Below are positions 26,607 to 46,660 of a DNA stretch of 64,000 nt, in pieces. Position 1 is the first letter of the stretch. Every line of letters starts with the position of its first letter. Made by a program: the position numbers and the translations under genes. The stretch spans positions 14,864 through 78,863 of the IMG/VR virus record IMGVR_UViG_3300033146_003076. The stretch is one strand, 5' to 3'. Source of the DNA: a virus. The notes beneath the pieces are model-generated. The model had not been told where the DNA came from. It saw only the letters and a list, made by a program, of their open reading frames with translations, and did not search any database.

Positions 26607-26691
26607 TTTATTTAAATCTTTTGTTTCTAGTTAGTGTCAACTCCAAGTTCAAAAGGGCTTTGATTAGACTGTCCCCCTTGAAGATGAAATT

Positions 26692-27111
26692 TTACCAAAT
26701 ACCATTTCCAGTTTTATTGAATCTACTTTCTAAATGGTTCCATTTGTTGTTGTAAAAATATTCCAATGTGTCGTGCTTGTCTCCGTTTCCATCATATCCT
26801 CGGACTAACCTTGACCAAACTCCTTGTTTGTATAACATGTATTGTTTTAACATTGCTTTATCTGTACAATCTCCTTTGAGTTCTTCCCAAGTAATATCTA
26901 TTCCTCTTTGAAACCAATGAAATTCATACATAACAGACATTTCTACCCACGATGATATTTGGTATACTTTTGCTTCTGTGTTGTTTCCTAATTTGCTAAC
27001 AATATTATCTGAGAACATTTCTATTCTTGGATCATATCCTTCAACAAACAATGGCATTAATAATAAAAAAAAGAAAAAAAGAGTAAAGGATTTGTATCTC
27101 TTACTTTTCAT
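26692..27111 (-). CDS. Secreted transglutaminase-like protein
   Basis: Signal peptide; KGDCTDKAML...LVRG...HDTLE...W. Confidence 0.7.
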   Translation of the reverse strand: MKSKRYKSFTLFFFFLLLMPLFVEGYDPRIEMFSDNIVSKLGNNTEAKVYQISSWVEMSVMYEFHWFQRGIDITWEELKGDCTDKAMLKQYMLYKQGVWSRLVRGYDGNGDKHDTLEYFYNNKWNHLESRFNKTGNGIW

Positions 27112-27112
27112 C

Positions 27113-27562
27113 TTAATCTTTCCACGGATTAATTTCACCTATACTACTTGCTAATTCTGTAGATTTAACTCCTGCTTGATCAGTGTATTCGTAGTTATAA
27201 TCTTTTACCAATACTTCTGCTTCTGCTCCAATAAGATTATCTGTTTCGATTCCATTCTCAGAGAATTCCCAACCTAAGTTTTTGAATACTTTTGTTGAGT
27301 TTGAGTTTGGTGTTAATGCTGTGTTATAAGTTCCATCTTCATTCTTATATTTGTAATATGTTTCGAATGCTAATGTTAAATATTCACCGTTTTCTTCTTT
27401 GTATGCTTCGTCCAATATACTAAACAACAATACTAATTTATAACCAAATTTACTTTCTGTTTTCTTTGGTTTAATTTCGTTTAGTCTTGCTTTGTAGTAC
27501 CCTTTCTTTGTGTACGGTCTTTTCATTTTCACAGCCACTTTATCACTTACTTCTAATTTCAT
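27113..27562 (-). CDS. DUF669-like putative ssDNA-binding protein
   Basis: KGYYKARLNEI...LIGAEAEVLV pattern; next to helicase. Confidence 0.5.
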   Translation of the reverse strand: MKLEVSDKVAVKMKRPYTKKGYYKARLNEIKPKKTESKFGYKLVLLFSILDEAYKEENGEYLTLAFETYYKYKNEDGTYNTALTPNSNSTKVFKNLGWEFSENGIETDNLIGAEAEVLVKDYNYEYTDQAGVKSTELASSIGEINPWKD

Positions 27563-27638
27563 TTTCTATTTACCTCGTTTTATTTATTTTTTATTTATTA
27601 TTTATTTATTTTGGCAATAATGGTAATTTAACCCAATC

Positions 27639-27983
27639 TTATTTACCATAAACACTATTTTTTTCAACCAAATGTATTATTGAAACAGTTCCATGTGTTA
27701 TACCTTTCCTTTTAAATTCCGTAGTTAATAAACCTTCCTCTTTTATCCACTTAATATCTCTATCAAATGTTTTTCTACAATGTGAATATCCTTTTGTTCT
27801 TAATCTTCTGTATAACCTTTCTTTTGAAATACCTTCTTCTACATGTTTCATAATTAGGTTTCTTCTCAGATCTAAACTATGTGTTGACGCTGGTTGTACT
27901 TCTACTAAAATATTTTGTTTCTTTAATATTGGCATTATCTTTTTAAGTTCATCTGTTGAACATATTATTTTTATTTCTACCAT
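27639..27983 (-). CDS. Winged-helix protein
   Basis: RKTFDRDIKWIKEEGLL. Confidence 0.6.
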   Translation of the reverse strand: MVEIKIICSTDELKKIMPILKKQNILVEVQPASTHSLDLRRNLIMKHVEEGISKERLYRRLRTKGYSHCRKTFDRDIKWIKEEGLLTTEFKRKGITHGTVSIIHLVEKNSVYGK

Positions 27984-28091
27984 TTTTCTTTACCTCTTAT
28001 TTTTTTAATATTTTTATCGGACCAGATACGAAATCTAGAAATAGTACATTTGAGGTGAAATAAATCAAAATCACACCTGGTCTTTCGATAA

Positions 28092-30920
28092 TTATATAGT
28101 TTTGTAAAATCCTGGTCTTGGTCTTATTATATCTCCTCTATGGACTAAAATATTAATTATCCCATCAAAATCTATTTCTTTTTCTCCTGTTAAGTTACTC
28201 CATTTCTCTAATACTTCTTCATGTGGACTTATTCCAATTTCATTTTTACATGAGTCTATACATTCCCTTAATACATACATCTTATCTCTTTTCTTTTTAG
28301 GGACAATTTGTTCTATTGCATTAATATTTAATCTTCCATCGGCAATATCATTAGTCATTATACCTTGTGCTTTAAATGATTCAACAAATATTTCTATTGC
28401 TTCTTCTGCGTCTTGTACTTCTATAATTTTACTTAACCTTGATTTCGCACATGCTGTTGAAACTCTTATTATATTTGTAATTAATCTACTAGAAAAATAT
28501 GCTTGTTCATCACCTGGATTTGCTGGTTTTGTTAATTTTATATATTCATTAGTTATATGTTTTATTGCTTCATTACTCATAACTGGTTTAACATAATTTT
28601 TAACATAAGCTAAATATTTTAATATTTTCTCATTGTTATAATTAACATCAACCTCATCATCTTCATTATACTTATTGAATATTGTTTTGATTATTTTTCT
28701 TTGATGTTCTTCTGTTTCTATTGCATGCATTGGAAATACTAAATCAAACCTATCCATAAAGTCTTTAGGGAACCCAATTTGTTTCCATACTGCTTCATAC
28801 TTATCAAAGACTCTATTAACTGGGTTTGCTGTTGCTAAAACTGTTGTTTCTGTTCTTATTATACTATGAATATTTGCTTTGTCAAATGGTACTTCTAAGT
28901 CCATTAATGCATTATTAAGTTTAGCCATATCATCTTTTTCTAATTTATCACATTCATCAAGAACAACTAAACTTCCTGTTGATAATGCTAACACCCCTGC
29001 TTCTAATACCCAACATCCTAATTCTTCATCTTTTGTTATTGCCGCAACTAATCCAACTCCTGTTGTTGATGATCCACTAGATAATCTACTATTAGGCAGA
29101 TAATGTAATGAACATTTTGCTAATTTTGTTTTACCAGAATTATGCGTGATTACACCATTATCTAAAATAAAATTATGGGTGTCCGGCACAATTAAGTCCC
29201 ACATTTCTTTTTTTTCCTTGCTCTTGTATAATTGTGTAATTTTGCATGGCATGATTGACAAAGAATTGTTAAATTGTCCAGAACATTGTTTTTGTTGTTC
29301 CCATCTATGTGATGAATAACCAAGTCCATTTTTGTATTGTTTTTTCCACAAGTGTGACAAATCCAGTACAAATATTCTTTTGCTATTTTTACATACTTTT
29401 TTCTGTTTTTGCTTAAACCCACGCTTAACCCATTTTTGTAAGCCGGATTTTTTTCTCCTTCTTTTCCTTTGAATTTGTATAAATTTTGAGAAATTCCTAA
29501 ACTTACTTGTTCTTTGAAGGACCTCATAGGTATGCCCATCATTTTTAACCTTCTTATTATTACATGATGATCGTGCCCCACTATTTTTCCTATTTGTGTT
29601 GCAGATAATTGTTTTTCTTGATATAACCTTTTTATTAAGTTTAAATCCAAATTTACCCACATATTGTTTTTTTCTAATGTTTGATCTCGTTGCATATTTT
29701 TCATCATTTTTAACCACCCTTAATAATAAATCTGTTATTTTTAATTCATTTGTTTTTATTTCCATGATGATCTTATTTCTTATTACTATCCATATATGGT
29801 CTTTTGAACATTTTAATTCCTCTTTCTCTGTACAAATAATATATACATCTTTTTGGCCTGTGCATTTCGGGATGCACATACTTTCAACTTTTTCAAATTT
29901 ATCATTAATTGTTAAACAAGTTTTTGCTTCTGATATTTTTTTTAATCCATCTTTTGTTTGGATTAATTGGTCTTTTAACATACATCCTGGATTTCCACAT
30001 ATTAATACATGGATTAAACCTCTTTCTTCTAATTTATTATTGATGTATAAATGTTCTCCACCAATTAGCTGTAAGAATAATGCTTTTTTAATTATATCAT
30101 GTCCATAAATAGTTCCATAAATCTCTTGGATAATATTTTCTCTAAAGTTTGTTTGTGTTGACATTAACTTTATTTCTTCAATATCATCTTCAGATAATTT
30201 TACAGTTCCTATTCCTTCTTCAATCATTTCTATGTTATTTGCTTCAACATATTTAATTTGATCTACACTATTATCTTTTCTTGGTTTTTCTTTTAATATT
30301 CCTGTAACTTTAATTTTTTTACTTGGTTGAACATTTTTATCTATGTTCTCATGACATAATGAACCTTTCAATGATATTAACATTGTTCGTGGTTTTTGTG
30401 CAGGGTCAATCATATTAATATCTTCTTCGATAACTAACTTTTGTAAATCTTCTAAATCTCTTGTTGTTTCTTTGAATCTTGTTTTATTTCCACATTGACA
30501 TATTTGTGGTTTTGTTATTTTTTCAGAGAGTTGTACGAGAGGTATTGTATTTCCACATGAAGGACAATCATAGTGTATTACTTTTGGGAAATGTGTAACT
30601 TCTGTTGTCTTTCTTATATATCCTGTTATAGATACTAATTTTGAAACATCTTTTGCTCTTAGTTTCCAAATATCTTTATGTTCTGACTGTGGTATGTTTG
30701 TAAATCTGATAGAAGTATTTTTCTTTCCGGATATACCTTCGTATGCTATTTCACATACTTTAATTGCTTCTTCAAAATCATCTAAGATATAATCTCCTAG
30801 TTCTGGTGATACTTGGATAATTTTCCCAAAATCCACGTATAAAGAATTATTTATTATTACATTATCACTTTTATTAAAAAAGGTTTTTGCTGAATCGATT
30901 AGTTTTGCTATTTCACTCAT
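28092..30920 (-). CDS. mcm: MCM replicative helicase (about 660 aa after splicing) with intein
   Basis: N-terminal Zn finger/OB, Walker A GNPG|SGKT, LEAGVLAL, LDECDK, ATANP, DRFDL, SSR. Confidence 0.97.
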   Translation of the reverse strand: MSEIAKLIDSAKTFFNKSDNVIINNSLYVDFGKIIQVSPELGDYILDDFEEAIKVCEIAYEGISGKKNTSIRFTNIPQSEHKDIWKLRAKDVSKLVSITGYIRKTTEVTHFPKVIHYDCPSCGNTIPLVQLSEKITKPQICQCGNKTRFKETTRDLEDLQKLVIEEDINMIDPAQKPRTMLISLKGSLCHENIDKNVQPSKKIKVTGILKEKPRKDNSVDQIKYVEANNIEMIEEGIGTVKLSEDDIEEIKLMSTQTNFRENIIQEIYGTIYGHDIIKKALFLQLIGGEHLYINNKLEERGLIHVLICGNPGCMLKDQLIQTKDGLKKISEAKTCLTINDKFEKVESMCIPKCTGQKDVYIICTEKEELKCSKDHIWIVIRNKIIMEIKTNELKITDLLLRVVKNDEKYATRSNIRKKQYVGKFGFKLNKKVISRKTIICNTNRKNSGARSSCNNKKVKNDGHTYEVLQRTSKFRNFSKFIQIQRKRRRKKSGLQKWVKRGFKQKQKKVCKNSKRIFVLDLSHLWKKQYKNGLGYSSHRWEQQKQCSGQFNNSLSIMPCKITQLYKSKEKKEMWDLIVPDTHNFILDNGVITHNSGKTKLAKCSLHYLPNSRLSSGSSTTGVGLVAAITKDEELGCWVLEAGVLALSTGSLVVLDECDKLEKDDMAKLNNALMDLEVPFDKANIHSIIRTETTVLATANPVNRVFDKYEAVWKQIGFPKDFMDRFDLVFPMHAIETEEHQRKIIKTIFNKYNEDDEVDVNYNNEKILKYLAYVKNYVKPVMSNEAIKHITNEYIKLTKPANPGDEQAYFSSRLITNIIRVSTACAKSRLSKIIEVQDAEEAIEIFVESFKAQGIMTNDIADGRLNINAIEQIVPKKKRDKMYVLRECIDSCKNEIGISPHEEVLEKWSNLTGEKEIDFDGIINILVHRGDIIRPRPGFYKTI
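29139..29984 (-). mobile_element. Intein (282 aa) in MCM Walker A
   Basis: Starts CMLKDQ, block B CSKDHIW, block F/G MWDLIVPDTHNFILDNGVITHN followed by Ser. Confidence 0.95.
29192..29707 (-). CDS. HNH homing endonuclease nested out of frame in the intein
   Basis: N-terminal HTH, NUMOD-like NPAYKNG, CHTC...IHHIDGNNKNNVLDNLTILCQSCHAKLH; own SD-like GGGTGG plus ATG. Confidence 0.9.
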   Translation of the reverse strand: MMKNMQRDQTLEKNNMWVNLDLNLIKRLYQEKQLSATQIGKIVGHDHHVIIRRLKMMGIPMRSFKEQVSLGISQNLYKFKGKEGEKNPAYKNGLSVGLSKNRKKYVKIAKEYLYWICHTCGKNNTKMDLVIHHIDGNNKNNVLDNLTILCQSCHAKLHNYTRARKKKKCGT

Positions 30921-31067
30921 CTTTCTTCACCTTTTATCCTTTTTTGTTAATATTAGTAATCTGTTGATAACTTCATCATAACTTTCTCTGTTAGTTATTC
31001 TTCTCTCTTTTAATTCCTCTCTTGTTGTTTTTTCAATTTGTATCGTTGTCATTTTACACCTCTTCTT

Positions 31068-31991
31068 TTATTTTGTTTTTACATTATGATATTTTAATAA
31101 TTTACCCATATTACCATCACACCAAACATTTAATATAGTATTATGAAGTTTAGGGTTTTCAATTTTCATTCTTTGAAATCTGTTTGGTTCTTTTTCTAAG
31201 TGAACTCCAAAACCACAACCAACACATCCTGTACGTTTTGCTTTTGTTGTTTCCCATTTACCTTCAACTTTAATTATTTCTCCATAAGCATCACAATAAT
31301 CTAGATCATATTGTTTAATATATTCTAGTATGTCCTGTTCTGTCCAGAAACCTAAAGGAGTACATTGTCCTTTTTCCCAATCGATACACCCATTTTGAAG
31401 ATATTGTTTTTTTCTTTGTTGTCCGTCACTAGCCATGGTTGCAATAAATCCTTTCATGCCTGATTTTTTATTAAATCTTTTTATTGGTTCTTTCTTTAAA
31501 TAATGGCAGCACATATCACTTACTTCTATATCTGAAGTAATTATATCTTTCCATTTATTAGATATTTTAAACATTGTTTTACTTCCATCCTTCATTATCC
31601 CTGTTATTAACCTACTTCTTAAGTAATCTGACTTTGTATGTTTTGCTTGATAAATAAAATGTGCTTGTTGTTTAGTTGGGAATGGTATACCATATTTATT
31701 CCACACTTCCAACATACTCTTTTTTGGTTTTAAAACAATGTTTGCTTTTTTTAATGCGTGATCTCTTGTGTGTAGTTCAGTTCCTGTATCTACAAATAAT
31801 ACTTTAACATCTGGAAAAAAGGATTTTATTAAATGTAACATAACTTCCGAATCTTTACCCCCACTATAAGAGATATAAACCTCTCCATTATATTCTTGAT
31901 AGAACTTTCTAATCTTAATTAACGAAAGATTAATCTTTACATTTAAAGATAATTTCTGTCTTTGTTCTAATTGCCATTTTTCCATCTTCAT
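31068..31991 (-). CDS. PAPS reductase-family (PP-loop, Fe-S) protein
   Basis: SYSGGKDS, DTGTE, CCHYLKKEP, RTGCVGC. Confidence 0.9.
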   Translation of the reverse strand: MKMEKWQLEQRQKLSLNVKINLSLIKIRKFYQEYNGEVYISYSGGKDSEVMLHLIKSFFPDVKVLFVDTGTELHTRDHALKKANIVLKPKKSMLEVWNKYGIPFPTKQQAHFIYQAKHTKSDYLRSRLITGIMKDGSKTMFKISNKWKDIITSDIEVSDMCCHYLKKEPIKRFNKKSGMKGFIATMASDGQQRKKQYLQNGCIDWEKGQCTPLGFWTEQDILEYIKQYDLDYCDAYGEIIKVEGKWETTKAKRTGCVGCGFGVHLEKEPNRFQRMKIENPKLHNTILNVWCDGNMGKLLKYHNVKTK

Positions 31992-32011
31992 TATACCCAA
32001 TCTATATACAA

Positions 32012-32035
32012 CCTGTATATAAACCTTTGTTTTAC
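32012..32035 (-). promoter_or_regulatory. Archaeal BRE-TATA promoter
   Basis: Minus strand AAAACAAAGGTTTATATACAG. Confidence 0.65.
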
Positions 32036-32187
32036 TTTTCAGTAGTTATCTAACAATCTCTAACTTCACAAGGAGAAAAGAATTAGACTGTCCCCCTTTG
32101 GATAAAGAAAATAAAGGAAAGGAAGATTTTAGTTTTCATTTAAACGGAGATAAAAATGGATTGTTTCCTTCCCTTTATTTTTTGTGA

Positions 32188-33222
32188 TTAAGATCGTCTG
32201 TTGATATTTACTGAATAGTTTCTTTGTTCTTCTGATACTTTAAATAATTCTTCAATGAATAACATCTTTTTAATGAATCTTTCTGATGTCCTTATTGTGT
32301 TTACAATTCCTTTTTTAATTAAAATCTTTTTAAGTTCTGTTGTTGTTATATCTTTTGTTCCTATAAGAGAATGTAATAATACTCTCTCTCTACTTGATAC
32401 TTTTAGTTCTGATTTTAATTCTTTCTTCCAGTCTAAATCATTTTGTTTACAGAAGTTATATGTTTTGAATGCTTTGTATTGTGTTCTTAAGTTTATGTCG
32501 ACACAAACTTCTTTTTTTATTAATTCAATTAAATGTTTTGTTACTTCTTTTTCAAATGTTTTTGTTGCTATTAGTCGCATTATATTTATTATTTCTTCTT
32601 TCGTGAAAAATACTTCAATATAATCCCCTCTTGATTGTAATGCGTTTAAGTCTTCTTGTAATCCCTTTATAGCTATTGCATTATAATCAAATATAAATTT
32701 ACAATTACATTCAAACTTGTCTGGTAAATCTTCTTGAACTTTTGAATAATTGTTTTTTGTTAATAAACATTTATCCTCACTTTCTGTTGCTGCTTTTAAT
32801 AAGTTTAATGCATCTTGCATCTTTAACAATTTAACAAAATCTTTCAACCAGATAATCTTCCCATTATTTTCATACAATAATCTGTATAAATATGCTGATG
32901 AAATATCTCCAGATAATTCTACAAATTCTGCATTATCATTATTTAATACTGTTCTTATTTGTTTACTTTTCCCAACGCCTGCAGTTCCTTTAACAAATAA
33001 AATTTTACTATATCCTTGAGTAACTTTCTTTATTGCATTACCTAATTTATAATAATACTTTTTTGTTATTTCTTCTTCATTCATTTTTTTTCTTGCAAGG
33101 GTCTTGTTTTCCAAATATGTTAAGTCTGGGTTATACAATTCCATTGGGTCTAAATCTGGTCTTAAATGTTTTAACCATTCAACGTAGTTATCATACGTTG
33201 TTATCTCTTTTTGTGTTATCAT
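32188..33222 (-). CDS. P-loop/AAA+ ATPase with C-terminal winged helix
   Basis: GTAGVGKS, LNLLKAA, ALQSRG, NLR, terminal wHTH. Confidence 0.8.
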   Translation of the reverse strand: MITQKEITTYDNYVEWLKHLRPDLDPMELYNPDLTYLENKTLARKKMNEEEITKKYYYKLGNAIKKVTQGYSKILFVKGTAGVGKSKQIRTVLNNDNAEFVELSGDISSAYLYRLLYENNGKIIWLKDFVKLLKMQDALNLLKAATESEDKCLLTKNNYSKVQEDLPDKFECNCKFIFDYNAIAIKGLQEDLNALQSRGDYIEVFFTKEEIINIMRLIATKTFEKEVTKHLIELIKKEVCVDINLRTQYKAFKTYNFCKQNDLDWKKELKSELKVSSRERVLLHSLIGTKDITTTELKKILIKKGIVNTIRTSERFIKKMLFIEELFKVSEEQRNYSVNINRRS

Positions 33223-33691
33223 TTTCTTCTTGCCCCACTTCTAGTTCATAGTATTTTTTATTCTCTTCTACAAACTCTTTAACTTCTTTTATTACATTCT
33301 CTACTAAAGACACATATCTCACGCACTTATTATCTTTTTGTATAGATATGTAACCTTGATATTTTAACAGGTTTACTATTGCATAATACTGATGGTCATT
33401 TGACCCTAATTCTTTTTTTATTTCTTTTGCTGTTGTAAATCTTTTCTTCAATAATATACAAAACAATTTATATCTTTTTCTTGACGGTTTTATTCCTATC
33501 CTTTTCTTCATTAACCCTGATGGTATTTGTCCTGTTTTATGTATTCTTTCTAGTTCTGTTCTTACTATTTTCTTAATGTTTATTTCTGAAAACATTGCCA
33601 CCATATCCCTTATTCCTGTTTTAAATATATATTTCCTTAATATTTCTTCAACTTTTTCTTCAATAATTATTTGTGTTTTCTCTTCTAACAT
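33191..33691 (-). CDS. Winged-helix protein
   Basis: TAKEIKKELG...LLKYQGYI. Confidence 0.6.
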   Translation of the reverse strand: MLEEKTQIIIEEKVEEILRKYIFKTGIRDMVAMFSEINIKKIVRTELERIHKTGQIPSGLMKKRIGIKPSRKRYKLFCILLKKRFTTAKEIKKELGSNDHQYYAIVNLLKYQGYISIQKDNKCVRYVSLVENVIKEVKEFVEENKKYYELEVGQEENDNTKRDNNV

Positions 33692-33847
33692 AATTCTTCA
33701 CCTTTTTTTATTTGTCCATAAAAATTAATTTAAATCCTTCATAACGGAATTTGCATCCACACTCTTTACACTCATAATGGGTTGGGTGTGTTATTAATCT
33801 CATCTTTCTACATTTAGCACATTTTCTTATTACCATTATATCACCTT

Positions 33848-34841
33848 TCAATATTTGTGAGCATTATCCATATTATTTGTATGTTTGTTTAATGCATTCT
33901 CAATCTTTAAAATCATATCTATCACATCATCAATTCTTTTATTTGTTGAAACAAACATTTCTTCGGTAGATTCTTTTACTTTTTTTATTTTCATTATTCT
34001 ATCCATATCTTTTGGTTCAATAATATGTCCTGTTGTTTGATGGTTTTCTTTTATTCCATTAGTGACTGCATCATTTGTTGATATTTCTGAATCAACCTTG
34101 AAATTTTTATTTATAAATTTATCACTTCCCCCCACTAAACTAACTCTTGCAAGTTCTAAACCATTATATGCTCCTTGCCCATAATCATCTTTAGAACCAC
34201 ATTCTAATTGTATTTGTTTTAAATCTTTTAGTGCCATTTCAATCGTTTGTTTTACTATTCCTGAAAATATGTCACTTCTTTTTACTTTTTTTAATTCTTC
34301 TTCATCCATTTTTCTTTTCCTCCTTAACCGGTTCAGCAGAGATTAGTGCGTCCCCTTTATCTTCTTTAAAATTAGCATAATATGTTTTCATTATTTCTGT
34401 TGTTTCTTTGATTGCGTTTAATTCGTTAATTAAATCTTTACACAAGTCCATTACTTCAATAATATATAAATTTATTGTTTCCAGTGTTGCCTCTGGTTCG
34501 TTATGTTTTCTTCCTTCATTAGTGTGTTTAATCTTATTAATATAATTATAAATCTCTATTAACCTTACACTATTCTTACCATACTTTTCAAGAACCATAT
34601 CTTGGGATATAATATTATTGGTTATTAATTCAATCATCTTGTTATACTTTTGTTTATTCTTTTCTTCTTTACTGATAACAATAATCCTTTCATCAAATAA
34701 TGTTCCTATCTCTCCTTTTAGTATAACTTTAGATGGTGGATAATTTAATGGATTGTCTATTCTACAAAAACAATCATTATCCAAATATAATTTTATATCT
34801 TTCTCGTCAATATACTTTAATTTAACTTCTTCTTCTCCCAT
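33848..34841 (-). CDS. Two hypothetical coiled-coil proteins (33848-34309, 34302-34841)
   Basis: ORFs with SD. Confidence 0.55.
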
Positions 34842-34852
34842 TTTTTCTTCCT

Positions 34853-35437
34853 CTAATGTTTATTAAAACAAACATTTCCTTTCTTCATACAATATTTACA
34901 TTCAATACATGTTAACCCTTTTGTTTGATTAAGACATTGCACAAACTTTTTTGGTAAAGGATCTTGTTTAAGTTTCATTTTAGATACTCCATCAAATTGT
35001 TTATATTTAGTTTTCCATATTCCTTTATCATCACTAATGTATAATGTAAAGTTCTTAGGTCTTTTTACTTTGATGTCTACATTTTTAGTGTATGTGTAAA
35101 AGATTATGTCTGGGAATGTTTTACATATCTTAACCCATTTATCAAAATATTCTTGACTATAAAATTCTCCACATGTGTGTATTCTAAAATATTTTATGTT
35201 TTGTTTTTTTATTAGTTTACTTATTTCTTCCACAAAATCTTTTCTTCTTGATGCTCTTAGATTATTATTAAGGAAAGGTGTCTGTGCAGGATATAATCTT
35301 TTAAACTTATTATAGTAACAGTGTTTAAGGCATCCTTGTTCTTTACATCCTTTAATCTTTTTGCATATTGTGTTGTTAATATTAAATGATACTATCTTTG
35401 TTTTACTATTTGGTGGACTTAACTTTAGTTGATTCAT
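34853..35437 (-). CDS. Gp88-like (radical-SAM-related) phage protein
   Basis: C...C...CYY, FRIHTCGEFYSQEY...W...F.TYTK, C-terminal CxxCxxC. Confidence 0.75.
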   Translation of the reverse strand: MNQLKLSPPNSKTKIVSFNINNTICKKIKGCKEQGCLKHCYYNKFKRLYPAQTPFLNNNLRASRRKDFVEEISKLIKKQNIKYFRIHTCGEFYSQEYFDKWVKICKTFPDIIFYTYTKNVDIKVKRPKNFTLYISDDKGIWKTKYKQFDGVSKMKLKQDPLPKKFVQCLNQTKGLTCIECKYCMKKGNVCFNKH

Positions 35438-35501
35438 TATCTTTACCTCTTGTTTAAAAAATAAAATGGTTGGTGTTGCCACCAACTTTTAAAGAACTCT
35501 T

Positions 35502-35870: not shown

Positions 35871-35891
35871 TTTCTATTTACCTCATTTAAT

Positions 35892-36221: not shown

Positions 36222-36233
36222 TTTTTCTTAACC

Positions 36234-36653: not shown

Positions 36654-36672
36654 TTTTAACCTCATTCTATAT

Positions 36673-37620
36673 TTAATCTGTTATTATTGCTAATTCTTCT
36701 CCAAGAATACTTCCAATAATTATACATTTTTTATTTTCTATTTCTCCAAAATCTTTTTTATATCTGTCCGCAGAAGCAAATATATTTACATTCTCTTTAA
36801 GCAATTTTATGATTTCAAACAGGTTTGTTTTATTATTTTCTATTATAAAACAATCTTTCTCTGAGTCATATCTTGCATTTTTTAACATTTCAATTATTTC
36901 ATTTTTAGTAAATCTTTTCTCACTCATTGTTGTTACCTCATTCAATTTGGTGTTATCACTAACGATTAGTGCGTCCCCTTTACTTCTCATGTTCAGGGTA
37001 TTTGTCTGCACTTCTAATATATCTTAACATTCTATCATGTTTAGTTTCTAAGTTTAATTCTCCTAACATTCTTATTTCCCATTCTGGCAATTCACTTAAT
37101 GGTGGTCTTTCCATTTTAGTTTTCCCCCTCCATGGCCAAATTATATCTTTCACTAATATAATCATTTGGAACATCTTTTATTTTTAAGTTTTCAATGTAT
37201 TGTTCTTCTGCGTCTTCATAATCATCTTTAACTAAACCTTCATATAATTCATTTGGAAATTCATCTATATCATTTCTGTATGATTCTAATATATTTTCTT
37301 CATTAGATTCAATCCAACTATTATATTCATCTGCTTCATCTCCTCTTCTTTCTGCTTCTTTAACCCACGCATCACTCATTTTACAACCCTCTACTCTCTA
37401 ATTTTTCATGTAATTCTATTGATTCTTCTTTTGTTAATTCATCTGTATAACTTCTTACAATCTCTTTTAATCTTAAAACCACTTCATCTGGTTGTGTTGA
37501 TTCATACAATCCAAACTCTGCTGTTGCCCATACTTCCTCTAATAGATCAACCATTGTCATTTTAAATTTATCTTGTTTTTCTTTTTCCATTTTATCTTCA
37601 CCAACTGGAATGATATTCAA
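36673..37620 (-). CDS. Small early hypothetical genes (36673-36927, 36980-37174, 37116-37379, 37381-37620)
   Basis: ORFs with SD; acidic. Confidence 0.5.
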
Positions 37621-38035: not shown

Positions 38036-38036
38036 T

Positions 38037-38579
38037 TTAATCCCTCCGTATTGATTTTGGATAATCAATACATTCTAATTGATTGAATGTTTTCATCCCA
38101 TCTTCAAATTCTTTCATTTGTTTTTTATTATACCCTTTCTTGTCTGAGTACCATTCTTTTGTTGTAAGGTATTGTTTTGCATTATGTTTAATAAATTCTC
38201 CATTATCATTTCTTGTAATAAAACAATATTGAATATTATTTTTTTCATCAAACTTCAAATACAAAAACCCATCATTATTATCTAATGTCTTTAGGAATGT
38301 TTCAAATCTTCCTATTCTTTTTTTATCTAAGATATATTCATTATCTCTGTTTTCAGTTACTGCATCATAATAATCACAAAAAGAATTCATATCATTAAAC
38401 TTTCCGTAACAACTCCCATAAAGATATTCTTTGAACTCATAAAATTTATGTTTTTGTTTCATGTATCCTCTTATTGCTGTTCCTATTCTTCTTATCGCAT
38501 ACATACCATATAACCATTGGAAATGTATTACCTTTAAGTCTCCTCTACGATTTAAGATTATTTGAAATCTTTGTCCCAT
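38037..38579 (-). CDS. Conserved phage protein (MGQR...HFQW...DNNDG family)
   Basis: Motifs. Confidence 0.55.
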   Translation of the reverse strand: MGQRFQIILNRRGDLKVIHFQWLYGMYAIRRIGTAIRGYMKQKHKFYEFKEYLYGSCYGKFNDMNSFCDYYDAVTENRDNEYILDKKRIGRFETFLKTLDNNDGFLYLKFDEKNNIQYCFITRNDNGEFIKHNAKQYLTTKEWYSDKKGYNKKQMKEFEDGMKTFNQLECIDYPKSIRRD

Positions 38580-38750
38580 TTTAATTTGCCTCCAATTTAT
38601 AATTCTTAATTTGTTTTGTTGCTTTTAATGCAGCATTATTTAATATCTCTCTTAGGTCTGAAGTTGATATAGTAAATGTTTCCCCTTTACTATTCTTCAA
38701 GTATATTGTGTTATGACTTATCCATAACATTTTGAAATCTTTTTCCATTT

Positions 38751-39272
38751 TTATTCCTCCTTCACATTATCTTTTTCATATTTCTTATTAGATGGTAATT
38801 TGTTTAATTTATATTCTGATAATAAATTTTCTCCATCATAATTACAATATGATTCAAATTTCATTTTGTCTAAATCAATAACATAATAATATTCACAGAA
38901 CAATGTGTCTTTAATAAATTCAGATGAATCAACCATTATTCCAATATCTCCATTCATATATTCTGTGATTTCTCCTTGCAGGTTTCTTAATAATTGATAA
39001 TACGTATTAATCTTTATGTTATCCATGCTACCTCCAACAGCAGTGTTTGCATATTTAGAATATTTTTTTATATGTTCTTTTGTTGGTTTAGATTCTTCAT
39101 CTTTAATCAACTCAATATTATTTATGTTTTCTTTTACATCTTTCCAATCAATCATTTTTCTTAATTCTTCAAGAATATTTATTCCTAATCCTTCCGGATA
39201 TGAATCGTAATGATTATACATACCAAAAAACTTTTCATTAACTTTAAAACATACGCATCCTCTTGTTCCCAT
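38751..39272 (-). CDS. Conserved phage protein (MGTR...YNHYDSYPEGLG family)
   Basis: Motifs, EYYYVIDLD. Confidence 0.7.
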   Translation of the reverse strand: MGTRGCVCFKVNEKFFGMYNHYDSYPEGLGINILEELRKMIDWKDVKENINNIELIKDEESKPTKEHIKKYSKYANTAVGGSMDNIKINTYYQLLRNLQGEITEYMNGDIGIMVDSSEFIKDTLFCEYYYVIDLDKMKFESYCNYDGENLLSEYKLNKLPSNKKYEKDNVKEE

Positions 39273-39933
39273 TATAATCTACCTCCATAGATTTATTTTA
39301 ATTAATTTGCAGGGTTACACAGAAATTAGACTGTCCTCTTTCTTTACTTTGTGTTGACTCTAACTTTACTTTTCCCAACTAAATTTGTCTCTTACTTCTA
39401 AGACTTCTATTCTTTCTCTTTTACAATCCCATTCCATCCCAGTCATTAAACATAATTTATTAATATCCATTATGTTCCACTCAACTGTGTTTATTACATA
39501 CTTAGTCATTTTTTCTTTTTCTTTTCTTTTGTTGAAGGGTCTTGTTTATTTATTATCTCGTTAAGTATATCTTCATCTATAATGTATAGTTCTCTTTCTG
39601 TCCTACCCATTATTCCTTTCAATCTTATTCTGTTTACTTCTCCTGTTTTCTTACTCTTTATTATTTTGTTTACAAACTCTTTACCTTTTGTTGTTAATTT
39701 TCTTTCTTTGGTGTATCCCAATTTTTCTAGTGTCATTCTTCTTCTACCTCTCCTATTAATCCTACTGTCATGTGTTTACAATCTTTATGTCCAAACTCTC
39801 CAAAAAATAAACTGTTTGCTAGGTTAATATTCATTTCATCTAATGATGTTCTGTCTATTTCTTCTCCATTTTCAAATAATCCATATATGTATGCCTTCAT
39901 TTTATCCTCTTATTATTTTGTCGTTTGTGTCGT

Positions 39934-40353
39934 TTAATTTCTTTTTTTAAGATAATTAATAATTAAATCAAATTGTTTTGTACTTAGTATTGTATTACCC
40001 CATGTAGATTTGTATCTTCTAAATACTGTGTGTTTACTTTCTTTTCTTAATGAGGGTATTGAATATGTTTTAATCCATCTTAATTCTGTTTCAGAAACAA
40101 TCTTTAATATTTTATCTTCATAACTTTCTAATTTTATTTTATCTAATTTTTCATTTATTATTTCTATTTGTTTTTCGTATTCTTTTTTTCTTTTAATTAA
40201 TGCAGATCTATTATTGTGTGCATAATATAATTCTTCAATGAATTCTGAAACATTATACACTTCTGGATCTTCTTTAATTTCTTTTATAAAAAATTCATTA
40301 AATCTTTCGTTTAATCTATCTTTCATTTTTATTTTTTTATCTTTCATTTTCAT
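39934..40353 (-). CDS. Hypothetical protein adjacent to putative origin
   Basis: ORF. Confidence 0.55.
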   Translation of the reverse strand: MKMKDKKIKMKDRLNERFNEFFIKEIKEDPEVYNVSEFIEELYYAHNNRSALIKRKKEYEKQIEIINEKLDKIKLESYEDKILKIVSETELRWIKTYSIPSLRKESKHTVFRRYKSTWGNTILSTKQFDLIINYLKKRN

Positions 40354-40399
40354 TTTTTTTATTACCTATATCTATTTATATCTTCTCTTTTTCTTTGGC

Positions 40400-40700
40400 G
40401 TCAACTTGGCCCTTTTACGCACACTTCAGAAATAATGGTTTTTGAAACCTTTTACAAAAGGGTCAACTTGGCCCTTTTACGCACACTTGTTTGCTCTTTT
40501 TTCTTTAATCTCTAACTCAACTCTTCTTTTTTTGTTATTACTAAGAAAAGACTACACTTATAAATATAGGGTATATATATATATATATAAATATATTAAT
40601 ATAGTTATATATATACTGTGTTGTGCGTAATGGCACCACTTTGGCCCTTTTGTAAAAGTATAGGTAAACAGTTTTTTCCAAAGTGTGCGTAATTACCCTT
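40400..40700. other. Putative replication origin
   Basis: 27-bp direct repeats 40400-40426 and 40462-40488, central (TA)n tract, mirror-image inverted copies on the other side. Confidence 0.6.
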
Positions 40701-40937
40701 TTTTAGTGCCAAAGAATTAAAGGTCTTTTTAGAACTTTTTTTGTAAAGTTTGTGTTAACATTAACTAATCTTGATCATAAAGAATTTGTATTAAATCATA
40801 TTTAATTTCTTCTAGTTTTCCAATTAATTCAAATGTTTCTTTTTTAGATAAGTTATGTATTCCATTTGTTCTATGTTCACATTTCCCAAACTCATAATAT
40901 ATTTTTATTAATTCATCTTCCATTTTATTTTACCTCC

Positions 40938-43900
40938 TTAAAAGAATATCATCTCATCATAATCTATTATTTTAATAAACCATTCAAAATTATTTAATAT
41001 ATTAATAAAGCCATCTATGTTATGTGCTTCATTCTTTTGGTATAACTTTAATAGGTTTTTAAATTCTTTAATACTTTCTTCTTTAATAATGATGATTGGG
41101 TATTCACTTGCTTCATTATCATATAATTTAATTGTTCTTATTTTTTCCATTTTCTTTTCCTCTTAACTTTTCAATTAATCTTAAGACATCTTCATCTTTT
41201 GTTCTTTGGTATAACCTATTTAATATTTCTAATTCTTCTTCATTCATCATCGTCTCTCCAATCTAAAACAATAATGTGTGGACAACCTTCACAAGTATAT
41301 TTATCATAAACATAATTATCATATTTTGTTTTTCCAGCGTATTCTAATGGTTTTATACAATTTGGACATATCATTTTATTGCACCTCTTTTCTTAATTCT
41401 TTAATATCAATTTCTATATTATCAAATAAGAAAACAACAAAATCATTATTTGTAAGTTTAATAATTTCTTCTTCTGTTGCTTCTTTTAATTTCTCTTTTA
41501 ATAAATCTAAATCAGTATCCTTATAATTATAACTTGTATAACTATAATTCTCACAAGTATGAAATCCTCCCTGTACATCATTACGAATATCAAATTTTAA
41601 TATTTTATTAATTTCATTTCTGGCCATTTGTAATATATGATCATAAATAATATAACAAATATCTAAATCTTTAAATGGTGCTTCTGTTTTTTTTGCCCAT
41701 TCTTCACATAAATCATAAAATTTTGAAACAGTTATATTTACTTCTCTTGCTACTCTTATTGCCTCATAGATATTGCTACTACCAAAAGGACAACAATAAT
41801 GTTTAAATTCATTAATACTATCTAATCCCATTTTATTGCCCCCTCCCTTCGTAAACTTCTTTTAAAAACTCATCATATTTTATCCAAAATTTACATTCTT
41901 TTTTAACAGAACATAAATTACAATCTTCTTTTTCTAAATATTCACATTTCATCTTTTCCTCCTTAACTCTCTCAAGCAGTGATTAGTGCGACCCCCTTTG
42001 TATTAAAGGGATTGTTAATATTCTCCACTTAACATAAATACATTATCAGTAAAGAAACATTTAACATTTCTTTTTGCGTCTGTCCATTTGTATTCCTGTT
42101 TGTATAATTCTTTTGTATCTCCATCTGTTATGATCATCATTGCCATTTCTTCTTCTACTTCTAGTTTAACTGTACAGAATGGTTCTTTTATTTTATTTTT
42201 TAGTATTACAAGAGCGTCTGTTACAAACCATGAGTAACCATTCTCCATTAGGTATTTAATTCCATCTGTGCATTTAGCGTTTAATATATCATAGTATTTT
42301 TCTGTTCCGTTGAATATGTGTAATTCTTTTAGTTCTTTATCCATTTTACAATCCCCACTGTGTTAGTTGATTACTAACTTGTATTTTTTCTTCATCATTA
42401 ATGCTATCAAAATACTGCATTAACAATTTATATCCTGCTTCGTAGTTACCGCTGCATTGATTTCTATTATTTAATTCTCTTGTTATAACTTTAATCTTAT
42501 GTTTCAAGAACTCTGTTGATATTTCTTTTACATCCATTTTATTTTACCTCTTATTTATCATTCTTTATAACTTCTAAATAAGTTTCAATATTTTGAATAA
42601 CATCATAATAACATGCGTCTATTAACATATTACTATCTTCTGGTATCTTTATATTTCTATTTTTCAAAAATACCATTAGTAAAATATTTAATTTTTCTTC
42701 TTCTTCCTCATTCATTTCCATTTTATTTTACCTCTAACATTCTGCTTCGAATCTACATTCTCCTTGTGCTTCTACACATTCTAATATTTTCTTACCTAAT
42801 CCTTCTCTCGCATACCATGTTAATAATTCTTTAACTTTACTTTCATTTACTTTAAAATATTCAGCCAACTTTTCATAAGTATAACCACATTTTCCTTTAA
42901 AATAATTATCTAATTTACTTTTGAACCCTTTTAGATTTTCTTTACATTCCTTTAATCCTTTCCTAATATCTTTTAAGTTGTCTTCATCAAAATAATATTC
43001 TATGTATGCTGGTTCAAATCCTTTTGATCCAAAAAACTCAGCATCATCACTGGATTGTATTCCAAATCAGAACTTTCCTTCTATGTCTCCTGAAAAATAT
43101 CTTCCCATTTTAATTACCTCTAAATTGTTTTATTATTTTATTTATTGCATACCTTTGTGAATCTATGATCCTTGTGCTTAAAGGGTCTGTAAAATCAAGA
43201 TAACAATTCCTTTTCTTAATATACATCATTTGGTTATAGTCTTTGTTAAATCCCCCTGGTGCGTTTAAGTATCCATCCATATCTATGTTAATTGTTTCTA
43301 TTGTCTTTCTTCCATGTCTGTTTGTTATTAGTATTTGTTTTGTTTCTGTGTTTAATTCTGCTGTTTGGTTGTTATCTCTTACAGATTTGTTTGTTTCTTT
43401 AATCATCATTTTAATTCACCTCAAAATTAAACTCTGTAATTAAGATCATGTTTCTTCTATCGTATAAAAAATATAAATCTAAATCTATAAGAAAATTTCC
43501 TTCATTTTTTATTTCCACTACAATTTCATAATCGCTGGGGAAATAATCATCCTCTGCATAACTTTTAAAACTTAAATCTATTTTTGCTTCTGAAAAAAGT
43601 TCTTTTAGTTTTCTTTTAATATCTTTTAAATCATTAAATCTCATTCCTTCCATCATTGAAAAAAATATATCCATGTTGTTTATGTGCATCATTTTCTTTT
43701 CCTCCTTTGAGTTGGTGTTGACACCAACGATTAGTCTGTCCCCTTTAATTATCTTCTTCCATACATTTCAAATAATCTTTTTTTGCTTTTTTAAAGGACT
43801 GTAAATATTTCTCTTTTAATTCTTCTTCTGTTATCCCTATTGCTTCTAGTGTTTCATCAATATCATAAGTAATACAATATTCATGGTTAGCTAATTCATA

Positions 43901-44516
43901 TCTAAACATTTGAAATTGATATTCTTTATCTTTCCTTAGTTCTTCTTCTCTTTTGTGTTGTTTCTCCATTAGTTCTGAATAGTCTTTTTCATTTTCCTTT
44001 TTAATAAATCCACAATAACCTATTGTTACTATTTCTTTTTTTGTGCAATTAAATTTCTTTAATCCTTCGTTCATTTGTTCTTCTGAGAATGCAAAGAATA
44101 TTGGAAATTCATTTATTTCTTTTTGCACTAATTCTTGATTCATAATATATTTATTCATTTTATTAGCTCCTTTATTTTATTAATAAACCTTTTTGATATA
44201 ATTTTTGTCTTTTTATTCTTGTTTCTTGTGATGCCTTAACTTGTGTTTCCCTATCATAATATATCATACTGCCACCTCTTTCTTTTCTTCTTAATAGGTT
44301 TTGTTCATGTTTATCTGGATCACCTATCCATCTAATTAAACTTCTTGATACATTAAATCTTTTTGCTAATTTTCTTTGCGATATTTCTCCATACAATCTC
44401 TTTATCATTTTTCTATCTTCTAAAGATAATTTAACCCTTTTATCTTTATTTCTGGGTATTTTAAGATGTGTGTATTCACTTTTATAAGGCATATTACTCA
44501 CGCTCCATTTATTCAT
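40938..44516 (-). CDS. Early small-gene cluster (41376-41831, DUF6876-like 42015-42344, 43110-43409, 43411-43692, 43745-44158, HTH 44172-44516)
   Basis: SD-led ORFs; TDGIKYL...SWFVTD...MLSGEY; ISQRKLAKRFNVSRSLI HTH. Confidence 0.6.
43704..43747. repeat. 44-bp intergenic repeat copy 1 (palindrome plus oriented motif)
   Basis: Identical to 44522-44565. Confidence 0.95.
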
Positions 44517-44521
44517 TTTCC

Positions 44522-44565
44522 CCTTTGAGTTGGTGTTGACACCAACGATTAGTCTGTCCCCTTTA
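44522..44565. repeat. 44-bp intergenic repeat copy 2
   Basis: Identical to 43704-43747. Confidence 0.95.
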
Positions 44566-44967
44566 TTATAAAAGGTCTTGTTCACGAAAGGAATAATATT
44601 CTTCTTTAGTTACTATAATATGATCTATTAGTTTAATATCTATTATTTCTCCTGCTTCCTTAATTTTCTTTGTAACTTCTTTATCTTGTGTTGATGGTTT
44701 GTTATTTCCGCTTGGGTGGTTGTGAGCCATTATTATTGCGTTACAGCTCATTGTTATTGCTTTCTTAAATATTTCTCTTGGTGCAATAATTGTGGCGTTA
44801 AGAGTACCTATTGCCACGATTTCTCTATATATTGGGTTGTTTGCTGTGTTTAATCCTATTACTATCACAAACTCCCTATCTTCTTCTTCAAATTCTCTTA
44901 GATATTTCTTTAAGATCTTTGGTGAATTTATTTTTTTGTTTGTTTCTATTTCTTTTAACAGTTTCAT
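44566..44967 (-). CDS. radC: RadC-like JAB domain protein
   Basis: REF...IGTLN...PREIFK..HNHPSG...PS..D...LIDHII. Confidence 0.92.
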   Translation of the reverse strand: MKLLKEIETNKKINSPKILKKYLREFEEEDREFVIVIGLNTANNPIYREIVAIGTLNATIIAPREIFKKAITMSCNAIIMAHNHPSGNNKPSTQDKEVTKKIKEAGEIIDIKLIDHIIVTKEEYYSFREQDLL

Positions 44968-45321
44968 TTTATCCCATATATGAGTTTTTTACTTCGTACA
45001 ATTCTTTTACTTCATACTTCTTATAAATTAATTCTAATTGGTAATCTATAACTGCGTCTGTTTCTTGTTCTTCCATTCCTGGTTCAACTTTATTTAATAT
45101 TTCTAATATCTGTTCCAACATTTTCTTTCCCTCAATATTCAAAAAATACATTATTTCCCATTTGGAAGTCGTATTCTTTATTATTTAAATTGGGTAATTT
45201 CCAGTTAAATGTTTCTCCTTTACAGTGCAAATTTATTCCTTCTACTAAATAAGGGTATTTTTTATTTTTTGACCTAATAGTCATTTTCTTTATAATCCAA
45301 TGTTTCATTTTGTTTTCCTCC

Positions 45322-45702
45322 TTATTCTAATACAACTCTTTCATGTTTACACCAAGAATCTTTTTGAAATTCCTCAAAATCTTTGTAGGTTATTCCTTTT
45401 GTTCCTTTAAATCTATCAAATGTTTCTTCAATATGTTTTAATTTTGGGTTTTCAATTTGTTCAAACCTTTGAGATCCCTTTCCTGTTTCTATTGTTGGTT
45501 TACAAACACTGGCAAAATCAATTCCAAAGAAGTATCCTATTTGAATGTATGCAATTTGGTTCTTCTTATTTAGTACATGAACCCAAGAATAGTCTTTTGT
45601 TACTGGGATATATACTTTATATCCATTTTCTATTAATACTTTGACATATTTTTTTAATGTTTCTTTATCTCTTCCCTTAAAATTTAAATCTTTTTGTTTC
45701 AT
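45322..45702 (-). CDS. Hypothetical protein
   Basis: ORF with GGTGA SD directly downstream of repeat copy 3. Confidence 0.65.
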   Translation of the reverse strand: MKQKDLNFKGRDKETLKKYVKVLIENGYKVYIPVTKDYSWVHVLNKKNQIAYIQIGYFFGIDFASVCKPTIETGKGSQRFEQIENPKLKHIEETFDRFKGTKGITYKDFEEFQKDSWCKHERVVLE

Positions 45703-45709
45703 TTTATCA

Positions 45710-45753
45710 CCTTTGAGTTGGTGTCAACACCAACAATTAGTTTGTCCCCTTTT
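45710..45753. repeat. 44-bp intergenic repeat copy 3 (5 mismatches)
   Basis: CCTTTGAGTTGGTGTCAACACCAACAATTAGTTTGTCCCCTTT. Confidence 0.9.
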
Positions 45754-46159
45754 TATTTGTTAAAGGATTGTGAATTTCTTGTTCCTTCAAGAGTATCACA
45801 TAAGGGTGTGTAGTGTTCCATTAATATTATCATATCTTTCATTTTCTTTTACCTCTTTTTTATTTTCTCGAAGTTCCTATCAAAACTCCTACTAATGCTC
45901 CATTTACCATACATCCTACTAAAGGTATGTAATCTGTGTAATCCGCCCCAAATTGTATCATTGAGTTACCTATAATCACTATTGTTATGCCTATTAATAA
46001 TTTTATATTTTGGTTCATTTTCTTTTACCTCTCATTAATTTTTCGTAATCATTATTTTTATCGCATAAGATCTTTAATCTTGATGCTAACATTTCTTCTC
46101 CTGCTTCTGGGTATCTTTCTGCGATCCATTTTGCTTTCCTTAAAAATGCTTTATTCATT

Positions 46160-46660
46160 TTCTGTTTGATTCTGGGTTTTTCCCAGAATTTAATCTGTTG
46201 TTATAAGTTGGATTAACAACTTTAAACATCAATTTACTTATGTTATCTAAATATTCTTTTTTGTATTTCATTTTCTTTTCCTCTTTGATTCTGGGTTAAT
46301 CCCCTAATCTTATCTTCATTTGGTTGTGTCAACACCATCCACTTTAAACTTAAAGTTAATGTTGACACCAACTCTAGTGATTAGTGCGTCCCCTTTAATC
46401 TGTTAAAAAAAATAGTTCCTTCAGTTAGGGGTTAAGAAGGAACTTAGAATAAGTGTGATTCTGGGTTAATCCCTTAATAGCCTGCAGGTATTCACCTGAA
46501 TATTATTATGGGATTATTCCCTAATTTGTTTAAGTTGGAGTTAATGTCAACACCAACTCTTAAAAGGAGGTGTTTGGGAAAAGGGACTTCTCCTTTTCCC
46601 ATTTAAGTATGAAGAGAGAATGTAAAGGAATTACCACAAGGGGATCTATACCTTTAACCT
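46160..46660. promoter_or_regulatory. Non-coding regulatory hub with three motif classes and hairpins
   Basis: Four TGGG-N5-CCC-type palindromes, three GTT..TGT..ACACCAAC-type palindromes, one GATTAGTGCGTCCCC motif, hairpins at about 46414-46444 and 46575-46601. Confidence 0.7.

Follow-up and report, generated by a model that had tools for sequence, protein, structure and literature searches.

How are the early genes of a virus transcribed when a 14-kb stretch of the block that carries them holds no canonical promoter? We addressed this question in an uncultured tailed virus of archaea, using a 64,000-nt window (bases 14864 to 78863 of the 78,863-bp linear IMG/VR virus contig IMGVR_UViG_3300033146_003076; positions are those of the window unless stated otherwise) in which a 17- to 18-nt word, AAAGGGGACNNNCTAAT(Y), where Y is position 18, recurs ten times on one strand. 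A preliminary description had likened the word to the promoters of single-subunit RNA polymerases and proposed a viral RNA polymerase, or a factor replacing the archaeal transcription factors TFB and TBP, as its reader, with an RNA processing or antitermination site as the alternative. Here, we propose with roughly even confidence that the word acts as a TATA-less promoter element specific to this virus and serving a delayed-early/replication gene class. The word's probable reader is the host RNA polymerase together with a putative sequence-specific factor.

Copies of the word and their placement

Matches to AAAGGGGACNNNCTAAT with at most two mismatches numbered 10 in the window, every one on the minus strand, against a mean of 0.51 and a maximum of 3 in 100 dinucleotide shuffles, and all ten run in the direction of the genes. 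The ten same-orientation copies of the preliminary description are real and far beyond chance. Its coordinates are right, although each starts one position lower since the 18th base (C/T) was counted in, and its consensus is broadly right, although four copies depart from it at one or two positions (AAGGGGGAC twice, AAAGAGGAC and AAGGGGGTC) and the AAA spacer of one copy had been missed. The search for additional copies that it recommended was run over the whole 78,863-bp contig and returned none beyond these ten.

A position weight matrix built from the copies scored them at 25 to 34 bits, while the next best site in the window reached 12.5 bits. Given this gap, the score distribution is bimodal and the word forms a discrete class without weak members. 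Its information content is ~22 bits, with a further 1.7 bits at position 18 (relative to the base composition of the strand itself), and its edges are sharp, with ~0.2 bit per position over the 25 nt upstream. Downstream of position 18, information content reflects only the subset of copies that are followed by a palindrome (see below).

Nine of the ten copies are intergenic, in a stretch where intergenic DNA makes up 17% of the sequence (P of about 1e-6), and several touch the upstream gene's stop codon or extend into it. The genes that follow carry strong Shine-Dalgarno (SD) sequences, and their start codons lie 29, 32, 33, 37, 37, 52, 55, and 56 nt past the word in eight cases, in agreement with the range originally reported; for the two outliers, the distance is 81 nt (32082) and about 108 nt (46380). 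The one copy that is not intergenic, at 34342, falls in the last 20 codons of the open reading frame (ORF) 34302 to 34841, which encodes ...KGDALIS... there, also as described before. A longer duplicated cassette, consisting of the word, the palindrome, and CTCAAAGG, is common to three copies, and two others share a leader.

Numbered in the direction of transcription, copy 1 (46380 to 46396; AAAGGGGACGCACTAAT followed by C) is the first on the minus strand, and its distant downstream start is SD led. Copies 2 (45736 to 45752; spacer AAA), 3 (44548 to 44564; spacer AGA), and 4 (43730 to 43746; spacer AGA) are each followed after 2 nt by the palindrome. Copy 2 has an SD and ATG 33 nt on, copy 3 precedes a helix-turn-helix (HTH) gene (44172 to 44492), and copy 4 shares 2 nt with the upstream stop codon and has an ATG at 37 nt. 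Copy 5 (41982 to 41998; AAGGGGGTCGCACTAAT) has the shortest leader of the ten, with an ATG 29 nt after it, and copy 6 (39325 to 39341; AAAGAGGACAGTCTAAT) has its ATG at 52 nt. Copy 7 (36965 to 36981) again overlaps an upstream stop codon by 2 nt, with a degenerate palindrome after it and an ATG at 37 nt, and copy 8 (34342 to 34358), the one in the KGDALIS codons, has the next ATG 32 nt on. Copy 9 (32082 to 32098; AAGGGGGACAGTCTAAT) lies ~50 nt upstream of a canonical promoter with its TATA box at 32016 to 32023. Copy 10 (26663 to 26679), which is the same variant (AAGGGGGACAGTCTAAT), precedes the canonical promoter at 26609 to 26622 by ~40 nt, with a degenerate palindrome (26630 to 26647) between the two.

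Complementarity with canonical promoters and terminators

The ordinary promoter of this virus is a purine B recognition element (BRE) directly followed by TTTAWATA (e.g., AAAAGG-TTTATATA), and the first genes after such promoters are mostly leaderless, without an SD, starting 21 to 24 nt past the TATA box. One such promoter (50062 to 50075, minus strand; AAAAGG plus TTTAAATA) stands at the head of the minus-strand gene block, and further strict BRE/TATA promoters were found on that strand at 48622 to 48635, 26609 to 26622, 23827 to 23840, 23718 to 23731, and 19490 to 19503. The promoter with its TATA box at 32016 to 32023 has a slightly relaxed BRE and drives the PAPS-reductase-like and MCM genes, while a divergent BRE/TATA promoter (TATA box at 50126 to 50133) faces the plus strand. 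Between 46.4 and 32.1 kb, where eight of the ten word copies lie, no canonical BRE/TATA promoter was found on the minus strand, so that canonical promoters flank the word-rich 14-kb stretch.

None of the ten copies has a BRE and TATA box upstream, and none contains a TATA box. The earlier statement that most sites have no obvious TATA box therefore holds for canonical boxes; weak TATA-like 8-mers (at least 6 of 8 matches) are located 0 to 4 nt upstream of six of the ten copies (P of about 0.02). The 5' end of the word, AAAGGGG, resembles the virus's own BRE, AAAAGG. As for copies 32082 and 26663, each lies 38 to 50 nt upstream of a canonical promoter.

A terminator-like hairpin with a 9-bp stem followed by T8 (46405 to 46444, minus strand) ends 8 nt before copy 1. 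Transcripts that begin at the head of the block, from its two canonical promoters, likely stop at this terminator, and a new start would therefore be needed at copy 1. Over the next 19 kb we found no comparable intergenic terminator, nine word copies, and a canonical promoter only at 32016. A scan for T runs placed other intergenic T8 runs on the minus strand at 47825 to 47832, 23779 to 23795, and 12488 to 12495 and a T7+T8 run at 27065 to 27080. Late genes appear to have a promoter class of their own: an identical 22-mer, TTTATAAATAAATTTAATCATA, precedes two late-gene groups (1221 to 1242 of the window and 3394 to 3415 of the contig, both plus strand), each time after a T-rich terminator-like tract, and is likely a late-promoter class of the TATA type.

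A probable palindromic operator shared by both promoter-like classes

The palindrome, GTTGGTGT(CA/TG)ACACCAAC, is 18 bp long and is represented by the probable operator at 43711 to 43728. It starts 2 nt past the word at copies 43730, 44548 (palindrome at 44529 to 44546), 45736 (45717 to 45734), and 36965 (36946 to 36963, degenerate) and 7 to 16 nt past it at copies 46380 (46355 to 46372) and 26663 (26630 to 26647), and it is absent at the other four copies. A repeat search also recovered palindromes that lack the word and lie at or near canonical or TATA-like promoters. The one at 19456 to 19473 covers the expected start site of the canonical promoter 19490, the one at 35469 to 35486 directly follows a TATA-like box, and those at 23745 to 23762 and 40748 to 40765 lie just upstream of promoter 23718 and of a TATA-like box near 40700, respectively. 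Further palindromes were found at 46322 to 46339 and 46540 to 46557.

Since some palindromes lie within transcribed leaders and others outside them, the most plausible reading is a DNA element, probably an operator for a dimeric regulator that is separate from the word. The pairing of the palindrome with the word in turn groups the word functionally with the canonical promoters. Encoded between two word-palindrome pairs, the HTH protein (44172 to 44492) is a positional candidate for the regulator of the palindrome; its structural model is a generic three-helix HTH, with generic and nonsignificant fold matches.

A proposed TATA-less promoter

From the copies and their placement, their complementarity with the canonical promoters, the terminator, and the association with the operator, we infer promoter activity and, with it, a start site, a reader, and a timing. 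The word would mark the transcription starts of about ten co-oriented minus-strand units, from 46.4 kb down to 26.6 kb. A few small immediate-early genes would first be expressed by the host RNA polymerase from the BRE/TATA promoters at 50062 and 48622, and this immediate-early unit would stop at the T8 terminators. The word-bearing units would then fire by means of the host RNA polymerase, helped or redirected by a factor that recognizes the asymmetric word and that may be virus encoded or, less likely, host encoded.

Transcription is expected to start either right past the 3' end of the word or ~20 nt further on, and in both cases the SD would stay in the leader. In the first geometry, the word would occupy about -18 to -1, and the weak upstream TATA-like box with a spacing of 21 to 24 nt would put the start 0 to 7 nt past the word, an arrangement that we liken to the gamma block of the class I repeats of the archaeal virus HF2 (discussed below). 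In the second, AAAGGGG would act as the BRE and ACNNNCTAAT would replace the TATA box, so that the start would fall ~20 nt downstream, after the palindrome and before the SD. Either geometry would require a dedicated sequence-specific reader of the word.

A start signal at the DNA level is favored by the combination of no consistent RNA fold around the copies, the terminator before copy 1, and the association with the operator. The copy inside ORF 34302 to 34841 likewise favors a promoter, since a promoter would be tolerable at this location, whereas a terminator or cleavage site would do harm there. A dedicated transcription signal, as first proposed, thus remains the best fit to the gene orientation, the intergenic placement of nine of ten copies, the stretch free of canonical promoters, the terminator, and the palindrome, whereas the specific link to a viral RNA polymerase or TFB found no support.

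Several observations weigh against a TATA-less promoter. Archaeal pre-initiation complexes normally need a TATA box, which the word lacks, and the weak TATA-like boxes are missing at four copies and vary in their spacing. A plain promoter model does not require copies 32082 and 26663, which lie upstream of ordinary promoters. In addition, no word-reading protein was found among the ORFs tested against Pfam and PHROGs, and the only genome-level relative found has neither the word nor an analogous dispersed motif in those parts of its early block that are present.

Candidate readers and the resemblance to phage polymerase promoters

If the word were the promoter of a virus-encoded RNA polymerase, T7-like or another small type, with its gene in the missing part of the genome, transcription would start right after CTAAT(Y). 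Phage polymerase promoters typically combine very high information content with an absence of weak copies, as the word does, and the contig is incomplete, with an open ORF at its right end and a gap in an accessory insertion. Its best alignment to T7 and K11 promoters is in register -17 to -1, sharing G-11 A-10 C-9 and C-5 T-4 A-3. In this register the word matches the T7 promoter at 8 of 14 fixed positions (P of 0.12) and its GCA variant at 10 of 17 (P of 0.03), where P values were obtained by shuffling the motifs, allowing for four references and nine registers. Furthermore, the bases after CTAAT(C/T) are variable, with no conserved +1 to +6 region and no G-rich start. The likeness to SP6 and T7 promoters put forward in the preliminary description is therefore not significant and lacks a conserved initiation region; it may serve as a lead but not as evidence.

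A search for the T7-like or other RNA polymerase or TFB homologue that such a reading calls for was negative in the available 78.9 kb. No domain of an RNA polymerase, TFB, TBP, or sigma-like factor was recognized with Pfam or PHROGs in ~70 scanned ORFs of this incomplete contig, and no long ORF in 78.9 kb contains a DxDGD-type motif. All ORFs of more than 500 aa encode MCM or structural proteins, and no polymerase fused to the tape measure protein, which has only 568 aa, or otherwise part of the virion was found there. In the immediate-early region, the expected place for a T7-style polymerase gene, no ORF exceeds 264 aa. Altogether, we consider a virus-encoded polymerase very unlikely. A broader version, in which the word is a complete promoter of a TATA-independent viral transcription system, read by its own polymerase or by a small protein that bypasses TBP and TFB, appears somewhat less remote but is still quite doubtful.

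The obvious candidates for a reader are the small immediate-early proteins, namely a 78-aa Cys-rich basic protein (49591 to 49827) and proteins of 101 (49289 to 49594), 72 (48382 to 48600), and 107 aa (47850 to 48173). Nine clusters of homologues of the 101-aa protein were found in metagenomes, and it is modeled with a predicted local distance difference test (pLDDT) score of 85; its fold had no match (Foldseek E values of >1; VIA Z scores of at most 4.2, to coiled coils only), and no homologue was found at IMG/VR loci. The 264-aa product of ORF 46997 to 47791, considered as a possible reader, matched no family and yielded a poor Atlas model (pLDDT of 0.42). This ORF is K/N/I rich, lies in DNA of 23% G+C, and contains three internal T6 to T7 runs, and its status as a gene is doubtful. 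It adjoins a very A+T-rich noncoding tract (46700 to 46990) between two T8 terminators.

Alternative explanations

It is possible that the word is only an operator, lying between the TATA box and the start site of weak host-type promoters that drive the genes, where it would act as a repressor or timing-switch site. The TATA-like 8-mers 0 to 4 nt upstream of six copies (P of 0.02), which would set the start 0 to 7 nt past the word, fit this arrangement, and the class I repeats of HF2 hold a conserved block in just this position. Four copies, however, have no TATA-like box, and none has a purine BRE next to one. Moreover, the word is asymmetric, unlike the sites of typical dimeric repressors, its ~22 to 30 bits are far above the need of a simple operator half-site, and a separate palindromic operator is already present; for these reasons we regard an operator alone as unlikely. 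We would give much the same low weight to a signal at the RNA level, according to which long read-through transcripts would carry the word as a protein-recognized site of cleavage, stability, or translation control. No strong intergenic terminator was found from 46405 to 27080, an SD of its own precedes almost every gene, as in polycistronic RNAs, and the word's location after stop codons and before SDs would fit an intercistronic signal. A comparable number of intergenic RNase III sites is found in phage T7. Against an RNA signal, the 117 nt around each copy share no fold as judged by minimum free energy and pair probabilities, the word's partners differing or being absent, and Rfam reports only the tRNA and nothing at the word. 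A 17-nt unstructured site would also be unusual for RNA-binding nucleases, and a cut at copy 34342 would precede the stop codon of ORF 34302 to 34841. With copy 1 starting 8 nt past a T8 terminator and the adjoining palindrome behaving as a DNA operator, the RNA processing site offered earlier as an alternative is weakened, chiefly because no consistent fold is present and one copy falls within a coding 3' end.

The second alternative offered earlier, antitermination, would make the word a loading site for an antitermination or processivity factor (ops, put, or nut like), read on the elongating complex at the starts of gene groups. An oriented, conserved linear word with a hairpin-forming palindrome behind it at several copies recalls boxA-boxB or ops elements, and two copies are near ordinary promoters. 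Those two, though, lie upstream of the promoters rather than in their leaders, and the other eight have no promoter ahead of them; ten copies in 20 kb also far exceed the usage in such systems. Since the terminator ends 8 nt before copy 1 begins, this idea is weakened too, and we judge it highly improbable. The same holds for a DNA site unrelated to expression, such as a recombination site at cassette boundaries, a strand-specific nick site of the kind found in T5 or phiKMV-like phages, or some other polar DNA signal. All copies being on one strand would suit such a site, the duplicated cassette of word, palindrome, and CTCAAAGG (three copies) and the shared leader (two copies) suggest duplication or shuffling of modules, and the virus carries several homing-type nucleases (GIY-YIG, HNH, and LAGLIDADG). 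No recombinase adjoins the copies, however, and their constant placement upstream of SD-led starts, their intergenic bias (P of 1e-6), and their complementarity with canonical promoters point to expression. Three other candidates were rejected: an origin-recognition box, as the copies are dispersed and co-oriented and not clustered around an A+T-rich tract; a homing-endonuclease target; and a trans-acting antisense RNA, as a reverse complement of the word is found nowhere else in this contig and there is therefore no virus-encoded antisense guide.

Relatives and comparable systems

The only genome-level relative that we found, through an alignment of MCM, is IMGVR_UViG_3300009320_000019 (56.6 kb, 29% G+C). 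It shares ~20 genes at 27 to 56% amino acid identity (56% for the major capsid protein), has the same divergent layout, and uses the same type of leaderless BRE/TATA promoter. The word has no copy in it even at three mismatches, and the palindrome family is absent as well, in a genome whose early block is cut by contig ends; a repeat search by which word and palindrome alike are detected in our window found no comparable dispersed intergenic motif in it. Conservation of the motif in related viruses, which the preliminary description had named as a check, was thus not seen in this one distant relative with its truncated early block, and as far as the data go, the word system is specific to the present lineage.

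No close relatives were found in IMG/VR, JGI metagenomes, or GTDB genomes. The highest identity for a large terminase (TerL) probe was 28% in IMG/VR, and a 1.2-kb metagenome contig matched it at 56%; a DUF7659 probe found relatives at 33 to 45% identity that lack the word, contigs with a 69%-identical PAPS-reductase have almost nothing else in common with the virus, and a single-sequence MCM probe found no relative. In IMG/VR, the matches listed for the 14-base pattern comprised single chance matches and three unrelated GC-rich phage contigs (G+C of about 54%), in which tandem units 51 nt apart contain AAAGGGGACCCGCTAAT (L022:197-264, L072:6570-6637, and L079:99-166). We rejected these units as relatives of the word; they are a chance look-alike in a different repeat system. 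The pattern of 18-mer variants matched one unrelated sequence, present in three contigs, and a composite pattern of word plus palindrome had no match in JGI metagenomes or GTDB genomes.

Among known systems, the nearest are the promoter-bearing HF2 repeats and the consensus sequences of early genes in crenarchaeal viruses, from which the word differs by lacking a TATA/BRE core. The intergenic repeats of HF2 carry promoters whose start site lies inside a conserved virus-specific gamma block that is essential for activity; they are 29 to 58 bp long, with a TATA box at -26 plus a BRE, and are active in a reporter with host factors alone (PMC8707807). Like the class I and II repeats of HF2/Haloferacalesvirus (PMC8707807), the word belongs to an archaeal tailed virus, is a repeated conserved sequence that is gene oriented and almost confined to intergenic DNA (9 of 10 copies), and heads multigene units. 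Unlike those repeats, it is only 17 to 18 nt long and has no TATA box, and canonical promoters form a separate class in the same genome. The HF2 repeats are conserved genus-wide (PMC8707807), whereas the word is absent from the sole relative found. In SIRV2 and other archaeal viruses, early genes share virus-specific consensus sequences, sometimes with repressor inverted repeats (PMC11065993). The word is similar in being an upstream sequence common to a temporal gene class but, unlike those sequences, it is not built on a strong BRE/TATA core.

With the promoters of T7, T3, SP6, and K11, the word shares a 17-nt upstream part, high conservation, and many co-oriented copies in intergenic DNA or upstream 3' ends. 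The in-register match is partial, with GAC.CACTA in four copies, and not significant, and in contrast to the T7 group, the initiation region is not conserved and none of the available 78.9 kb was found to encode a polymerase. We know of no single-subunit polymerase of the T7 group in archaeal viruses. The promoter-early stem-loop (PeSL) cassettes of T4-type phages also combine a promoter-type word with a hairpin-forming inverted repeat between small early genes, and as in those cassettes, some copies here are duplicated as longer units; unlike in PeSLs, the palindrome also stands alone at other promoters. PeSLs carry the early promoter consensus of the host sigma-70 factor, and their role in gene shuffling has been shown by genome comparison.

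Genome context and additional features

The DNA has a G+C content of 28%, and the minus-strand block spans ~37 kb (12.5 to 49.8 kb), flanked on both sides by plus-strand morphogenesis genes. The left flank encodes the major capsid protein and tail proteins, including the tape measure protein (4272 to 5978), and the right flank encodes a C5 methylase, the large terminase, and a Mu-type portal. Within the block are genes for an intein-containing MCM helicase, a PAPS-reductase-like protein, an AAA ATPase, an RNA ligase, a DHH phosphoesterase, RadC, a GIY-YIG nuclease, and a winged-helix protein, along with many small ORFs without a family. Apparent inteins occur in MCM (28092 to 30920, minus strand; splicing domain) and in a head-morphogenesis-like gene (57064 to 59067, plus strand; LAGLIDADG match), and more HNH and GIY-YIG nucleases are scattered along the genome.

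The host is an archaeon, as follows from the affinity of MCM, an intron-bearing tRNA, and textbook archaeal promoters. Among GenBank phage records, MCM matches archaeal viruses only; an alignment of MCM against GTDB genomes gave no match that would indicate the host lineage. The tRNA gene (51198 to 51306, plus strand), which ARAGORN missed, has a 40-nt insertion in the anticodon loop at the archaeal-type intron position. A second tRNA-like 3' half, with the T-arm GGGTGTTCAAGTCCCCC, lies ~350 nt upstream of it, at about 50790 to 50850 on the same strand.

At the right end, an open ORF of more than 538 aa (62387 to 64000, plus strand), whose pattern resembles a right-handed beta-helix or pectate lyase, runs off the contig, and the genome is therefore incomplete there. 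Comparison with the relative described above puts the contig gap within an accessory insertion of undefined size. A third repeat family, CTGGKWTWATCCC, has three direct copies ~36 nt apart and two inverted ones at 48644 to 48831, in a 690-nt noncoding stretch just upstream of the canonical promoter 48622. Longer members (GGGATTAACCCAGAATCA, minus strand) at 46286 to 46303 and 46456 to 46473 flank the word copy at 46380. This family possibly represents iterons for a replication or regulatory protein. Also in immediate-early noncoding DNA (49170 to 49200, minus strand), an isolated half-site AAAGGGGAC stands before TCAATTTTGTCCC, and the two can fold into a GGGAC/GTCCC hairpin.

Implications for transcription in archaeal viruses

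Archaeal viruses are generally thought to depend on host TBP, TFB, and RNA polymerase and on promoters of the TATA type, and very few of their temporal switches are understood. The genome described here contains two separate promoter-like classes, one of leaderless BRE/TATA promoters and the other formed by a TATA-less word that precedes SD-led starts, with a palindromic operator shared between them. It may therefore offer a compact and testable case of transcriptional reprogramming by an archaeal virus. Should the word work without a TATA box, it would represent a new mode of archaeal promoter recognition and a highly specific orthogonal promoter part.

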